IMG/VR virus record: IMGVR_UViG_2623620502_000007
Strand: one strand, 5' to 3'
Source: a virus
Lineage: Duplodnaviria > Heunggongvirae > Uroviricota > Caudoviricetes
Length of the DNA: 35,017 nt
Shown: positions 1 to 28,579 of the stretch, piece after piece
Numbering within the stretch: position 1 is the first letter of the stretch
Layout: each line of letters begins with the position of its first letter
Notes under the pieces: generated by a model
The model's input: only the letters and a program-made list of their open reading frames with translations
What the model was told of the DNA's origin: nothing
The model's database searches: none
Translations under genes and position numbers: made by a program

Positions 1-1362
1 ATGTTTAAACCGGAACTCCTTTCCCCGGCGGGAACGCTGAAAAATATGCGTTACGCTTTCGCTTATGGCGCAGATGCTGTTTATGCGGGCCAGCCGCGTT
101 ATTCCCTGCGTGTGCGCAACAACGAATTCAACCACGAAAATCTTCAGCTCGGCATCAATGAAGCCCACGCGCTGGGGAAAAAGTTTTATGTCGTGGTCAA
201 CATTGCACCGCACAACGCCAAGCTGAAAACCTTTATCCGTGACCTGAAACCGGTGGTGGAAATGGGGCCGGATGCGCTGATTATGTCCGATCCAGGGCTG
301 ATTATGCTGGTGCGTGAGCACTTCCCTGAAATGCCGATCCACCTTTCGGTGCAGGCTAACGCCGTGAACTGGGCGACGGTGAAATTCTGGCAGCAAATGG
401 GCCTGACCCGCGTGATCCTCTCTCGCGAGCTGTCGCTGGAAGAGATTGAAGAGATCCGCAATCAGGTGCCGGATATGGAGATCGAGATCTTCGTTCACGG
501 CGCGCTGTGCATGGCCTACTCCGGTCGCTGCCTGCTCTCTGGCTATATCAACAAGCGCGACCCGAACCAGGGCACCTGCACCAACGCCTGCCGCTGGGAG
601 TACAACGTCCAGGAAGGGAAAGAAGATGATGTTGGCAACATCGTACACAAGTACGAGCCGATTCCGGTGCAAAATGTTGAGCCGACGCTGGGTATCGGCG
701 CACCAACCGACAAAGTGTTTATGATCGAAGAGGCCCAGCGTCCGGGCGAGTATATGACCGCGTTTGAAGATGAGCACGGCACTTACATCATGAACTCGAA
801 AGATCTGCGCGCCATCGCCCATGTAGAACGCCTGACCAAAATGGGCGTGCATTCGCTGAAAATCGAAGGTCGTACCAAATCTTTCTACTATTGTGCACGC
901 ACCGCACAGGTTTACCGCAAAGCTATCGATGACGCCGCTGCGGGAAAACCGTTCGATACCAGCCTGCTGGAAACTCTGGAAGGTCTGGCGCATCGTGGCT
1001 ATACCGAAGGTTTCCTGCGTCGTCATACTCACGACGATTATCAGAACTACGAATACGGTTATTCAGTTTCTGACCGCCAGCAGTTTGTTGGTGAGTTTAC
1101 CGGTGAGCGCAAGGGGGACCTCGCGGCGGTAGCGGTGAAAAATAAATTCTCCGTTGGCGACAGCCTTGAGCTGATGACGCCGCAAGGCAACATTAATTTT
1201 ACCCTTGAGCACATGGAAAACGCCAAAGGCGAAGCTATGCCGATAGCACCAGGCGATGGTTATACTGTGTGGCTCCCGGTCCCGCAGGATCTTGAGCTCA
1301 ATTACGCGCTGCTGATGCGTAATTTCTCCGGGGAAACCACGCGTAATCCCCACGGTAAGTGA
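1..1362 (+). CDS. yegQ: U32-family peptidase-like protein YegQ (also called RlhA)
   Basis: Full 453-aa ORF starting at window position 1; N-terminus MFKPELLSPAG and Cys-rich motifs (CMAYSGRC, CTNACRWEY) recognisable as E. coli YegQ; host-like GC content. Confidence 0.9.
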   Translation: MFKPELLSPAGTLKNMRYAFAYGADAVYAGQPRYSLRVRNNEFNHENLQLGINEAHALGKKFYVVVNIAPHNAKLKTFIRDLKPVVEMGPDALIMSDPGLIMLVREHFPEMPIHLSVQANAVNWATVKFWQQMGLTRVILSRELSLEEIEEIRNQVPDMEIEIFVHGALCMAYSGRCLLSGYINKRDPNQGTCTNACRWEYNVQEGKEDDVGNIVHKYEPIPVQNVEPTLGIGAPTDKVFMIEEAQRPGEYMTAFEDEHGTYIMNSKDLRAIAHVERLTKMGVHSLKIEGRTKSFYYCARTAQVYRKAIDDAAAGKPFDTSLLETLEGLAHRGYTEGFLRRHTHDDYQNYEYGYSVSDRQQFVGEFTGERKGDLAAVAVKNKFSVGDSLELMTPQGNINFTLEHMENAKGEAMPIAPGDGYTVWLPVPQDLELNYALLMRNFSGETTRNPHGK

Positions 1363-24826: not shown

Positions 24827-24993
24827 ACATCGCCGCCTGCGGGCGGCTTTTTTATACCCCGTCATCACGCCCTCACTCGCTCACCACCGCACAAAACACC
24901 CCGCAGACACACCAACCCCCAACGGGCAGACTAAGCGCCGTCACGACGCGCTGAGACGCTGGAAAATAAAATCAGCACCACCGCCAGCGCGCA

Positions 24994-25012
24994 GTGCTTT
25001 CCCCGCCTCGCC
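24994..25012. other. cos site (19-nt cohesive-end sequence)
   Basis: gtgctttccccgcctcgcc is the reverse complement of GGCGAGGCGGGGAAAGCAC, which I recall as the P2 cohesive end; it lies about 170 nt beyond Q, as expected. Confidence 0.75.
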
Positions 25013-25063
25013 CGCCCGCTTCGTGGGGCAGTTTTAATGCATATGAATGTAAATTTAGAAACC

Positions 25064-25091
25064 ATACCAAGCCTAGATATAGGCTTGGTAT
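25064..25091. terminator. Perfect 12-bp inverted repeat hairpin (ataccaagccta-gata-taggcttggtat); candidate bidirectional terminator
   Basis: Lies 50 nt downstream of the minus-strand kinase operon stop and just past cos; T-rich tract tttatt follows on the plus strand and the minus-strand flank is moderately U-rich. Confidence 0.45.
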
Positions 25092-25140
25092 TTATTCAGG
25101 AATTGTGAATGCAAAATAATGCAAGAATATGCATTATTTA

Positions 25141-26202
25141 CTACTTAGCCTTGATAACTGGATGAGCCCGGTCATGGCCCCCTCCCAAGAACTTTGAAAA
25201 AATCACCTTATCATTACTCACTGGTTTACTACCATACACACTATCGTAATGAAAAAATACTTGTGGTTGGTTTGGTATACGAATGAAACCATAAGCTAGT
25301 CTAGTATCACCTATTACTCCTTCTTCTCTATTACAAACCGGATAGCATAATTGACCACATAATGACACGAGCTCATCTGCAGTGGGGCGTTTAGAAGGGT
25401 CTAGATTTAAACATTTTTCAATTATATCTATAATTTCATTTGCCAGCGGAGCAAACTGCTTATTTGACTTAATAAAATCAGGATATTGAGTATGCTTTCC
25501 AGATAAGATGTTCGGAATAGCCATATACCCTAATCCAAAAGGATACTCTCCCGTGAGGATTCTGAACATCATCGCACCTAATGCCCAGACATCAGATGGT
25601 TTTGAAACTTGCCCCTGACTTTGTATAATTTCCGGGGCCATATATGGCAATGCCCCCATAGCTGTTTGAGATGAAGTAATCGATCCTTGCCCATTCTTTG
25701 CGGCCTCATCAATTTCATCACCGGCCATTTTTGAAATTCCAAAATCGGTGATTTTAACACCTGTAGCACTAACTCCTCCAATAACCATTATGTTAGAAGG
25801 TTTGAGGTCTCGATGTATTACATCCACATGATGGGAAGCCGAAAGAGCCTTCGCTAAGTTATGAAATATCTTTGCAGTCAAGTAAGGATCAACACTTGTA
25901 TAGCTACTCAACAATGCTTTATCCAGATCTACTCCATCGATAAATTCCTCCGTTAAAAATTCACGTCCATCTTCGGCAAAATAATCTAATGTTTTAGCGA
26001 CGTTAGGATGGTTGACCCTAGATGCTAAAATAGCACTTCTATGGAATCGTTTTTCAGCAGACTTATTTTTAGGGGTCTTAAGAGCAACTTGCCTATTTAA
26101 TATCTTATCATTCGCAAGGTAAACCTTTTGCATCCCCCCCTCACCAATTTCGCTGATAATAGTATAACGATTTATATTAGTCCCAGGAACCAACTCAATC
26201 AT
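25141..26202 (-). CDS. Hanks-type Ser/Thr protein kinase with C-terminal OB-fold-like extension (353 aa), third gene of the cargo operon
   Basis: Kinase motifs IGEGGMQKV (Gly-rich loop), VALK, HRDLKPSN, DFG, APE, DVWALG; start ATG overlaps the upstream kinase stop (ATGA) with GGAGG 7 nt upstream; AT-rich. Confidence 0.85.
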   Translation of the reverse strand: MIELVPGTNINRYTIISEIGEGGMQKVYLANDKILNRQVALKTPKNKSAEKRFHRSAILASRVNHPNVAKTLDYFAEDGREFLTEEFIDGVDLDKALLSSYTSVDPYLTAKIFHNLAKALSASHHVDVIHRDLKPSNIMVIGGVSATGVKITDFGISKMAGDEIDEAAKNGQGSITSSQTAMGALPYMAPEIIQSQGQVSKPSDVWALGAMMFRILTGEYPFGLGYMAIPNILSGKHTQYPDFIKSNKQFAPLANEIIDIIEKCLNLDPSKRPTADELVSLCGQLCYPVCNREEGVIGDTRLAYGFIRIPNQPQVFFHYDSVYGSKPVSNDKVIFSKFLGGGHDRAHPVIKAK

Positions 26203-27263
26203 AACACAACCTCCGGATGAGAAAGATCAAATGTGATAAATATACGTTTTGTAGTTGTTCTTCCGGCAGGGCCAAGTATTATCACGCATGAGCTAGGCAA
26301 TAAATTTCGTTTTTTAGCCCTAATATTATTAACATAGACATCCCCTGATATATCTGAAATATAAAACTCGGAACCAGAGTAAGTAATTTCCACACTACCC
26401 ACCCCTGGATTGTTATAAGACTCCGTCTTGTGTGTAGCTGAGAGCACTACTGGTTTTTTATTATCAGATATAAGCAATGCTCGATGAGAGTTGTGCAATA
26501 ATATTTTTTTCAAAACATCGCAAACATCTTTCATAGGGGGCCTAGCTTGAGGATTTGCATCAAGACATTTGAAAAACAATTCCTTTACAATACTTGGTAA
26601 TTTTATTACCGACAAATCAAATGGATTAGATGTCAGAATCTTAGGGTAACGGGTCAATTCATCTGGGACAGGGGTTTTAGCTAAGCACATTGCTGTAACA
26701 GCAAAGGCATATGTATCAATTGCTTTAGTAAAGTCTACGTTCTGCAAATACAACTCAGGAGCTGCAAAAATTGGGGTACCTTTAAACCCAATTGTTTTTG
26801 CATTATCTATTTTTCTTGACAAGCCAAAATCATATATTTTTACAAGCCCTTCTTTATCAATCTTCATATTCCCAGGCTTTATATCACGATGAATGATATC
26901 ATGTTCATGTATCTCGCAAATACCTGATGCTATTTGCCACAAAATCTTAATAAGCTCCCCTACTGTAGTAATTTTATTATTAACTTCATTCAACGATGGA
27001 CCATCGATAAACTCTTCAACAATTGCAAGATTGCCTTCAGCATAATTAATCACATCAAACAGTTCAACAACATGTTTTGAACGTAGTGTCATTAGAGCAG
27101 CCAACTCGTCTTTCATTCGCTCTGTATCTGATGGATCATTTATAGTCTTTATTGCAACAAATCTCTCAAGATGAGAATCGCGGCATTTGATTACACTACC
27201 AAATCCCCCTAAATCAGGATCCCCAACCACTTGATATCTTTCTGGGAGAAAATCACTCATCAT
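26199..27263 (-). CDS. Hanks-type Ser/Thr protein kinase with uncharacterised C-terminal domain (about 354 aa), second gene of the cargo operon
   Basis: Motifs LGGFGSV, VAIK, HRDIKPGN, DFG, APE; start taken at the ATG preceded by AAGGAG with 6-nt spacing (the six-frame ORF begins 2 codons upstream at 27269); overlaps the phosphatase stop. Confidence 0.85.
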   Translation of the reverse strand: MMSDFLPERYQVVGDPDLGGFGSVIKCRDSHLERFVAIKTINDPSDTERMKDELAALMTLRSKHVVELFDVINYAEGNLAIVEEFIDGPSLNEVNNKITTVGELIKILWQIASGICEIHEHDIIHRDIKPGNMKIDKEGLVKIYDFGLSRKIDNAKTIGFKGTPIFAAPELYLQNVDFTKAIDTYAFAVTAMCLAKTPVPDELTRYPKILTSNPFDLSVIKLPSIVKELFFKCLDANPQARPPMKDVCDVLKKILLHNSHRALLISDNKKPVVLSATHKTESYNNPGVGSVEITYSGSEFYISDISGDVYVNNIRAKKRNLLPSSCVIILGPAGRTTTKRIFITFDLSHPEVVL

Positions 27264-28449
27264 CACCATCTCCTTTTATTGAATTCCTTTCAAGGAATGA
27301 CATGTCAAGCTGTGAAATACAATCAAGTCTATTATTTTTATTTAACCCATTTTTTTTCTCATCTAATTCCTGAAGAGATTTATTCTTATTTTTTGTTCTT
27401 GCCTTTCTTTTTGTTGTTGCTTTGTTTATATCGCTAACGACTGAATCAGTATTTTTTTTGTTTGACACTTTTCTAACACCAGAAGTGCCTTTATTATTTT
27501 TTTCAAGCTCAACTGTATTTAAAGGCTCTAATGAAGATGACTTATTCGGCACGCTAATGACTTTTAATTCACCAAATGGATCCCAGAGATTTATTACATC
27601 TCCAGATGAAACATCTAACTCTTTTAGAGTATTAAAAAGGTCTATAACTGCTATACTTGCATTGTCGAAACCACCAAACCAACTAGCAAGATCAATAACC
27701 CGCCTAGAATAAACACCTAGATTCGCCGAGTGCACATATAACTTTCTTAAATTATCCTTACCGATAGAATGCGCACCATCAGAACTTAAAATAATTACGC
27801 CACTCTCCAAGGCTTGGATATGATGAAAGTGTATTTCCAATGTGCCATCTATGCCTATAAATTGTACTAATTCACCACCAAAGCGTAAATCAATATCCTG
27901 TGGATCCATATTTAGATGATTATTATACTTTTTGGCTAAGGCAACTAAAGTATCGTCCTCGCTCAACTGAGTAGTTTCTTCATGCGAGACATAATAAATA
28001 CGGCTATCACCTACATTTACTGCGGTAATATTATCATCATCTTCTAAAGCTATCGCTGATAATGTCGCCCCTCCATTACCCTTATATACATTCAAAACAG
28101 AATCATTCGCTTGTAGCACAGCTTTCTCAAGACAAGAACGTATTGGTAAATGAGAATTTCTTATTATTTCAGTAAAAAATGTAGATAAAGTTAAAGATGC
28201 TGCATTGGCACCCCCCTCCATCCCCCCCATACCATCGGCTAACGCAACAACAACGATATCTTTAGCTTTGCTACTTGGGCGGAATTTCAATATAGCAACC
28301 CTATCTTGGTTTTCCTTCCGTACCAACCCAATGTCAGTAGCTATAGCCACTGGTAAGGTTGAGACACGACGCACTGAGGATGCTATATTTTTTCGATGTA
28401 GCCATCCGTGAATATGCTCATGAAGGATTTCGTAAGAATCACGGCTCAC
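27253..28449 (-). CDS. PP2C (PPM) family Ser/Thr phosphatase with Lys/Asn-rich C-terminal tail (398 aa), first gene of the cargo operon
   Basis: PP2C signature motifs ENQDR, ALADGMGG, VGDSR, SSDGAH, DNAS; GTG start 4 nt after AGGAGG (an in-frame ATG one base upstream runs straight into TGA); AT-rich. Confidence 0.82.
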   Translation of the reverse strand: MSRDSYEILHEHIHGWLHRKNIASSVRRVSTLPVAIATDIGLVRKENQDRVAILKFRPSSKAKDIVVVALADGMGGMEGGANAASLTLSTFFTEIIRNSHLPIRSCLEKAVLQANDSVLNVYKGNGGATLSAIALEDDDNITAVNVGDSRIYYVSHEETTQLSEDDTLVALAKKYNNHLNMDPQDIDLRFGGELVQFIGIDGTLEIHFHHIQALESGVIILSSDGAHSIGKDNLRKLYVHSANLGVYSRRVIDLASWFGGFDNASIAVIDLFNTLKELDVSSGDVINLWDPFGELKVISVPNKSSSLEPLNTVELEKNNKGTSGVRKVSNKKNTDSVVSDINKATTKRKARTKNKNKSLQELDEKKNGLNKNNRLDCISQLDMSFLERNSIKGDGDDE

Positions 28450-28579
28450 ATTACCTCCTAGTTACTTTGATAGACCAAAGAGTTAGCTTACAAAAATAGA
28501 GCGGAAATGCCTAGTGTTTCAATCGATTTTTGTGAGAATTGGTTATTTAATAACTATATAAAAACATTGGAATTTACCA

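Follow-up and report, generated by a model that had tools for sequence, protein, structure and literature searches.

From our analysis of the window, that is, the whole 35,017-nucleotide stretch of viral DNA examined here, two kinase genes and a phosphatase gene together form a kinase-kinase-phosphatase (KKP) module, and kinase 1 is the already published PfkB-type kinase. Kinase 1 ends in ~95 residues which are, in predicted structure, a divergent FHA-type beta-sandwich. We consider it quite likely that a P2-like prophage here carries KKP with kinase 1 ending in a trimmed FHA-type sandwich which docks onto the OB/CSD-like tail of kinase 2, probably outside the canonical phosphothreonine pocket. 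The FHA domain of the KKP PfkB-type kinase was known before; the sole increment is the proposal that it is a trimmed FHA which probably does not bind phosphothreonine in the canonical manner.

KKP was defined as three adjacent same-strand genes in PP2C-kinase-kinase order, each of 900-1300 bp (Guo et al. 2024, Nat Commun 15:7244, PMC11341870), encoding PfpC (PP2C), PfkB (kinase and FHA) and PfkA (kinase and cold-shock domain with a GFI/A motif) (PMC11341870). More than 1200 KKP clusters were reported, mostly in prophages including P2 (E. coli), adjoining Phage_portal and Phage_GPA (PMC11341870). In Pf6, PfpC is the antitoxin which neutralises the two kinases acting jointly as the toxin; both kinases are required for substrate phosphorylation and toxicity, and many host proteins are phosphorylated (PMC11341870). 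T4 Gp59 binds and inhibits PfpC, by which the kinase activity is unleashed and phage production is blocked, and four heterologous KKP modules, one of them that of E. coli 15EC039 (MCM8848563-65), were protective against T4 and T-odd phages (PMC11341870).

The island in the window was assigned to KKP because its architecture equals that of the published PfpC/PfkB/PfkA set. The agreement covers gene order, strand and size, the FHA-type tail of the PfkB homologue, the CSD-like tail of the PfkA homologue with its GFI motif, the HRD/DFG motifs and the PP2C, and the location in a mobile element. In comparisons with PfkA and PfkB sequences taken from the machine-read supplement of PMC11341870, which has minor errors, kinase 1 was 43% identical to PfkB of Pf6/MPAO1 over the full length including the tail (E 4e-76), and kinase 2 was 53% identical to PfkA including the C-terminal domain (E 8e-124), with AYGFIRIP facing AYGFIARP. 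The His-FHA construct of PMC11341870 (LENRHQALITHKG...FITFDLSHPEINL) spans the equivalent of kinase 1 residues 258-356. The likeness to Pf6 PfkB extends to operon order, length class, invariant C-terminal residues and the ...FITFDLSHPE tail, whereas the carriers differ, KKP being in the filamentous phage Pf6 of Pseudomonas aeruginosa there and in a P2-like myovirus of another host here.

The window is taken as a P2-like prophage because the flanking genes encode a gpP-type terminase, portal, GPO scaffold, replication protein GPA and integrase. The three-gene island is 3.3 kb long and is flanked by the portal gene and by gene A (replication), and its GC content is 34-41% against 52-58% in the backbone (Table 1). 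Of 5426 complete E. coli genomes, 4 contain the operon at an identity of at least 99%, where its genes are labelled merely as generic kinases and a phosphatase, and the PP2C-kinase-kinase triad is kept around 46%-identical homologues of Pseudomonas zeae and Pseudoalteromonas. The phosphatase matched PF13672 (27.0 bits, cut-off 24), NCBIfam Stp1_PP2C (E 2.5e-32) and phrog_17277 (E 1e-136). In Pfam, the kinase 2 tail gave CSD at E 0.01 and S1-like at E 0.0099, both below threshold, and PfkA itself gave CSD at E 0.001. The catalytic motifs read IIHRDIKPGN with IYDFGLS and VIHRDLKPSN with ITDFGIS, so that HRD and DFG are present in both kinases, and K41, D129, N134 and D147 are invariant in the kinase 1 family. 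At the kinase 1/kinase 2 junction, the stop and start codons overlap as ATGA (26199-26202), and a GGAGG Shine-Dalgarno sequence (26210-26214) sits in Pro-Glu codons of the kinase 1 tail. The same junction, CCGGAG...NTATGA, also occurs in the 46%-identical homologues of Pseudomonas and Pseudoalteromonas.

Table 1. Features of the three-gene island and of kinase 1 (nucleotide positions in the window unless marked as residues)
Feature	Position	Strand	Details
PP2C-type Ser/Thr phosphatase (PfpC-type antitoxin)	27253..28449	minus	398 aa, 1197 bp, Lys/Asn-rich C-terminal extension
Kinase 1 ORF (PfkB homologue)	26199..27269	minus	356 aa + stop, 1071 bp
Kinase 1 Ser/Thr protein kinase domain (PfkB-type)	26499..27269	minus	VAIK, HRD, DFG and APE all found
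Kinase 1 FHA-fold C-terminal domain (predicted fold)	26202..26498	minus	residues ~258-356; conserved tail ...FITFDLSHPEVVL
Model strands of the kinase 1 C-terminal domain	residues 264-268, 274-276, 282-287, 291-297, 302-309, 311-313, 327-332, 343-349		full-length AlphaFold2
Putative translational-coupling junction kinase 1/kinase 2	26199..26214	minus	sequence
Kinase 2 (PfkA homologue)	25141..26202	minus	353 aa, 1062 bp; Pkinase E 9e-47
Kinase 2 C-terminal cold-shock/OB-like domain with GFI motif (AYGFIRIP)	25144-25314	minus	residues ~297-353

The preliminary description of this DNA had proposed, from the letters and their reading frames, a distinct C-terminal domain of about 100 residues in kinase 1, and this proposal is borne out. 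Pfam Pkinase covers residues 21-250 (E 1.1e-39) and nothing in Pfam matches past residue 250 even at E ≤ 10; the final helix of the kinase domain in the full-length model is 246-257, and both boundaries together set off the tail as a separate unit. The peptide quoted for the domain is found as residues 265-348 of the minus-strand 356-aa ORF. The span proposed for it, 26199-26500, covers the domain; it also includes the stop codon and is not divisible by three, the in-frame limits being 26202-26498. No strand had been given for the C-terminal domain. The plus-strand frame across it is interrupted by many stops.

Structure prediction of the C-terminal ~100 residues gave an FHA-type beta-sandwich. 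The AlphaFold2 model of residues 252-356, built with 122 sequences, was all-beta with at least 8 strands at a mean pLDDT of 92.1 and a pTM of 0.84, and the model of the domain contains 8 strands of three or more residues plus short bridges, the canonical FHA having eleven strands with beta-4 at an edge. The full-length model of kinase 1 (pLDDT 92.7, pTM 0.89) agrees in its strand set with the domain-only model. Foldseek against the PDB returned FHA domains as nearly all of the best matches, with probabilities up to 1.00, TM of 0.5-0.58 and weak E-values (best 0.026), and 93 residues were aligned to Rad53 FHA1. The earlier low-confidence guess of a small, FHA-like beta-sandwich is in keeping with both the confident model and these matches. 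Foldseek against the viral predicted structures of BFVD yielded nothing meaningful (probability ≤ 0.23). We also considered an AGC-kinase-like hydrophobic motif for F-I-T-F-D-L; it was rejected since these residues form the final, high-confidence beta strand of the sandwich.

The FHA assignment is drawn from predicted structure and fold searches, since no sequence-level method recognised FHA. The profile search with PF00498, which had been suggested along with the FHA guess, was negative; the window domain gave no match at E ≤ 10 and does not reach the PF00498 gathering score, and among 39 diverse family members 38 gave no match and one gave E=0.054. Precomputed annotation assigned PF00498 to none of the 120 listed homologues. 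PfkB itself is not matched by PF00498 either, so that the ‘FHA, PF00498’ given in the paper evidently derives from structure. With the isolated domain as query, nothing was returned by Pfam, NCBIfam or PADLOC, and in PHROGs only the generic phage kinase family phrog_2361 was hit (E 2e-87 for kinase 1). A profile of the 39 family members searched against all PDB sequences found no FHA; its match to trypanosomatid ribosomal uS19 (E 0.026) was weak and was taken as spurious.

The conservation of the domain is pronounced. A search with full-length kinase 1 gave 518 homologues, and the 120 of them that were listed are all ~350 aa long with query coverage of 93-100% (mostly 97-99%) and identity of 44-72%. 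Across these 120, the tail is conserved to the same degree as the kinase core, with H262, A264, Y297, G299, G309, N314, C328, V329, G333, R342, D348 and P352 invariant and a tail consensus terminating in ...R-x-F-I-T-F-D-L-S-H-P-E-V-V-L. These 12 invariant residues and the pLDDT of 92.1 speak against a chance feature. With the tail profile, HMMER was run exhaustively over 1.84 billion representative proteins and gave 269 clusters. In all of the best 150 of these the domain is C-terminal, with full-length hits (~340-370 aa) matching at ~245-360 and the shorter matches probably being fragments. From this placement throughout the best 150 of 269 clusters, the domain seems restricted to the C-terminus of these ~350-aa kinases of the kinase 1 family. 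When the domain by itself was the query, a word-indexed protein search picked up one fragment only, and among 50,697 phage records tblastn gave just one match, in Klebsiella phage Kp4865-2 at 32% identity.

We then compared the family with 10 reference FHA domains, the sequences of which were each validated by a strong PF00498 score. Using hhalign, only the C-terminal half (beta5-beta11) was aligned (probability 39%, E 3e-4), in the register EITYSGSEFYISD---ISGDVYVNN...LPSSCVIILG...RIFITF against EFRLENNEFNVVDVGSLNG-TYVNR...LANGDEVQIG...FRLVFL of GarA. The FHA guess had been built on three motifs, of which two find a counterpart in this register, VYVNN being the FHA ‘T-x-V-N’ strand and IILG the ‘I-x-l-G’; by these matches, the structural Asn and Gly of FHA domains correspond to N314 and G333, both invariant. 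The third motif, S-x-x-H (S277, H280), falls in the beta2-beta3 loop and is not upheld; across 259 homologues, position 277 is Ser in 20% and position 280 is His in 8%. A global hhalign register, in which the first strand would be FHA beta-3, was rejected for its probability of 1.3%, and it conflicts with the beta3-beta5 hairpin, the beta1-beta11 couplings and the 93-residue alignment to Rad53 FHA1.

The canonical phosphothreonine-binding motifs G-R, S-x-x-H and N-G appear to be absent from the modelled domain; among the 259 homologues none of the three is conserved, nor is any R, S, H or N at the aligned positions. In the hhalign register, the residues before the beta-5 equivalent are P-G-V-G-S and not S-R-x-H, with V-G-S where R-R-H would be, and the S-x-N-G (beta6-beta7) loop is 3 residues shorter and reads S-G-D/E, with S-G-D where S-L-N-G is expected. 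In both AlphaFold2 models, strands 282-287 and 291-297 are separated by merely 3 residues. Mean-field direct-coupling analysis of 258 sequences gave an antiparallel hairpin ladder at 31-45/33-43/35-41 (fragment numbering) and also beta5-beta6, beta10-beta11, beta1-beta2 and beta1-beta11 contacts. Within the family, D/E310 and R337 are the most strongly coupled pair, which is probably a salt bridge joining two loops on the binding face. The simplest reading is that the edge strand beta-4 and the G-R and S-x-x-H loops would be replaced by a tight beta3-beta5 hairpin. With the loops trimmed in this way, to a tight beta-3/beta-5 hairpin and a shortened S-x-N-G loop, the modelled domain probably does not bind via the canonical phosphothreonine pocket, and the phospho-dependent recognition within the module that the preliminary description had envisaged is doubtful. 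Nevertheless, the beta10-beta11 loop, which lies on the presumed binding face, contains invariant R342 and frequent R337, and this leaves room for a non-canonical phosphate contact through R342/R337.

From the homology to Pf6 PfkB (43% identical), the domain most likely serves to dock kinase 1 to the CSD-like C-terminus of kinase 2. In Pf6, truncation of the C-terminal (FHA) part of PfkB impairs toxicity, the CSD of PfkA is likewise critical for the joint toxicity, and isolated His-FHA co-purifies with CSD-Flag (PMC11341870). On this reading, which we consider quite likely, the KKP cargo sits in the variable slot from the portal gene to gene A, with PP2C, kinase 1 and kinase 2 translationally coupled on the minus strand, and the FHA-like domain of kinase 1 would bind the OB/CSD-like tail of kinase 2 such that a kinase 1/kinase 2 heterodimer is assembled. 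We regard it as unlikely that the domain is instead a canonical-type FHA binding phosphothreonine, at a site autophosphorylated in kinase 2, in kinase 1 itself or in substrates, which would make assembly or targeting phosphorylation-dependent. The FHA fold itself, the intact catalytic motifs of both kinases with an invariant activation-loop Thr159, the multiple phosphosites reported on PfkA and PfkB (PMC11341870), and invariant R342 with the common R337 in the beta10-beta11 loop would all suit such binding; yet G-R, S-x-x-H and N-G appear to be absent, the segment for the first two being collapsed in the models to a 3-residue turn, PF00498 finds no match, and the proposed S-x-x-H is unconserved. 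Further, FHA and CSD were pulled down as isolated domains, with no kinase domain attached (PMC11341870), a result suggesting that they need not be phosphorylated by the cognate kinases.

It is rather improbable that the domain serves mainly as a substrate- or trigger-recognition module for host targets or a phage component, and not for kinase-kinase docking. C-terminal domains of defence kinases frequently serve as sensors, and the full-length pTM of 0.89, suggesting that this domain and the catalytic one keep a fixed mutual orientation, would fit such a role. It would also accommodate the many host proteins modified by the KKP kinases, both of which are required (PMC11341870). However, the only direct data are of binding to the CSD of PfkA, and the known phage trigger targets the phosphatase and not the kinases (PMC11341870). 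The surface residues of the domain, moreover, are strongly conserved across E. coli, Pseudomonas and Pseudoalteromonas hosts, which is more in keeping with a partner inside the module than with variable phage or host targets. Very improbable indeed is that the FHA resemblance is an artefact of modelling, or a convergent small beta-sandwich of unrelated fold. FHA is undetected by any sequence method, the PDB profile search gave just the spurious uS19 (E 0.026), the Foldseek E-values are weak (≥ 0.026) and the hhalign probability is 39%; beside these stand the confident models and the near-exclusive FHA matches of Foldseek.

Along with docking onto the kinase 2 tail, we tentatively put forward, at somewhat less than an even chance, that the ‘FHA’ of KKP forms a trimmed subfamily of its own, without beta-4 and both phosphothreonine-binding loops, with a covarying D/E310-R337 clamp between loops and invariant R342, repurposed as a phosphorylation-independent adaptor which binds an OB/cold-shock fold. 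To our knowledge, an FHA:CSD pairing of this kind is undescribed elsewhere.

Compared with canonical FHA domains (PF00498; M. tuberculosis FhaA/GarA, yeast Rad53 FHA1 and human Chk2), the window domain shares the fold without the Pfam match; in the models it has neither G-R nor S-x-x-H nor N-G, apparently no beta-4, and a shortened beta6-beta7 loop. In Rad53 FHA1 and Chk2, the FHA is N-terminal to the kinase, whereas here it is C-terminal. The degenerate FHA-like domains of T3SS YscD (cytoplasmic) and T7SS EssC (N-terminal) likewise are without the phosphothreonine residues, and no sequence relationship between them and the window domain was detected; these are secretion-system scaffolds unfused to kinases, whereas the window domain is fused to one. 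Stk2 of Staphylococcus, PD-T4-6, MADS Mad6 and BREX PglW are eukaryotic-like Ser/Thr defence kinases, as are those of the window, and the PD-T4-6, mad6 and PglW models are matched by kinase 1 and kinase 2 alike. These matches span the kinase domain alone, with the FHA-like tail outside all of them, and for the PP2C partner PADLOC 2023 offers no model. Unlike Stk2, PD-T4-6, Mad6 and PglW, KKP is a three-gene toxin-antitoxin arrangement.

The identification of KKP explains the purpose of two kinases and a phosphatase in a P2-like prophage. As RefSeq (‘serine/threonine protein kinase’), Pfam, NCBIfam and PADLOC 2023 name neither the module nor the C-terminal domain, labelling by structure is of use in annotating defence islands. 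If confirmed, the loss of the pocket would make the published ‘FHA, phosphopeptide interaction motif’ a label for the fold and not for the mechanism.

A sharp low-GC island (34–41%) was found at 25000–28500 of the window, against 52–58% in the P2-like backbone, and its limits are exactly those of the three genes of the kinase-kinase-phosphatase (KKP) module. As the GC content drops sharply across exactly these genes, the base composition suggests that the KKP genes are horizontally acquired cargo, lodged in a slot flanked by the portal gene and gene A. On the portal side, a strong, GC-rich hairpin and the T-run after it look like a terminator, and the candidate sigma-70-like promoter lies within the 130-bp gap after gene A [Table]. 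The P2-like prophage is not the constant home of the distant KKP triads that we located in Pseudomonas zeae (L001) and Pseudoalteromonas (L003); one of these adjoins genes for a tyrosine integrase and an AAA ATPase, and the other, in a chromosomal region, has a gene for a T6SS Tle1-like lipase and DUF2931 as its neighbours.

Table. Features of the KKP module and its flanks (window coordinates unless a locus is named).
Feature	Position	Strand	Remarks
GC-rich hairpin, then T-run (putative terminator)	24830-24847	plus	strong; directly past portal gene
Cold-shock/OB-like domain of kinase 2	25144-25314	minus	~57 residues; GFI motif (AYGFIRIP)
Kinase 1 stop/kinase 2 start junction	26199-26214	minus	ATGA overlap and Shine-Dalgarno
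Junction equivalents in homologous loci	L001:6040-6056; L003:6055-6071		
D310 and R337 of kinase 1	~26259-26342	minus	
Lys/Asn-rich C-terminal extension of PP2C	27253-27650	minus	~130 residues (~270-398)
Sigma-70-like promoter match (candidate)	28493-28522	minus	TTGAAA-18-TATTTT; weak; upstream of PP2C start

The genes of the module overlap one another. The stop of the PP2C phosphatase gene overlaps the start of kinase 1 by 17 nt (27253–27269), and the stop of kinase 1 and the start of kinase 2 share the ATGA. The Shine-Dalgarno of kinase 2, GGAG(G), sits within the codons CCG GAG, which specify an invariant Pro-Glu in the kinase 1 tail. Pseudomonas and Pseudoalteromonas homologues with 46% identity retain this CCGGAG...NTATGA junction. 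Because the Shine-Dalgarno falls within these codons and the junction is kept in such distant homologues, translational coupling may act as a nucleotide-level constraint and partly explain why the ...HPEVVL tail is so extremely conserved.

Within the C-terminal FHA-fold domain of kinase 1, the strongest direct coupling across the domain family pairs D/E310 of the β6-β7 loop with R337 of the β10-β11 loop, which suggests a covarying salt bridge clamping the two loops; in canonical FHA domains, the equivalent loops form the peptide-binding face. The C-terminal domain of kinase 2, which gave weak Pfam matches (CSD, E 0.01; S1-like, E 0.0099), is a homologue of the cold-shock-like domain (CSD) of PfkA, a kinase of the Pf6 prophage KKP, and the PfkA CSD binds the FHA domain in a published pull-down (Guo et al., 2024; PMC11341870). 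The PP2C C-terminal extension is low-complexity in appearance and gave no family match.

Matches of PADLOC-DB 2023 at 25141–28449 were confined to the kinase domains (mad6, PD-T4-6, and PglW models); this database holds no model for the KKP phosphatase, and NCBIfam (June 2026) holds no KKP-specific model. The KKP module would be missed or mislabelled by standard defence-system annotation.
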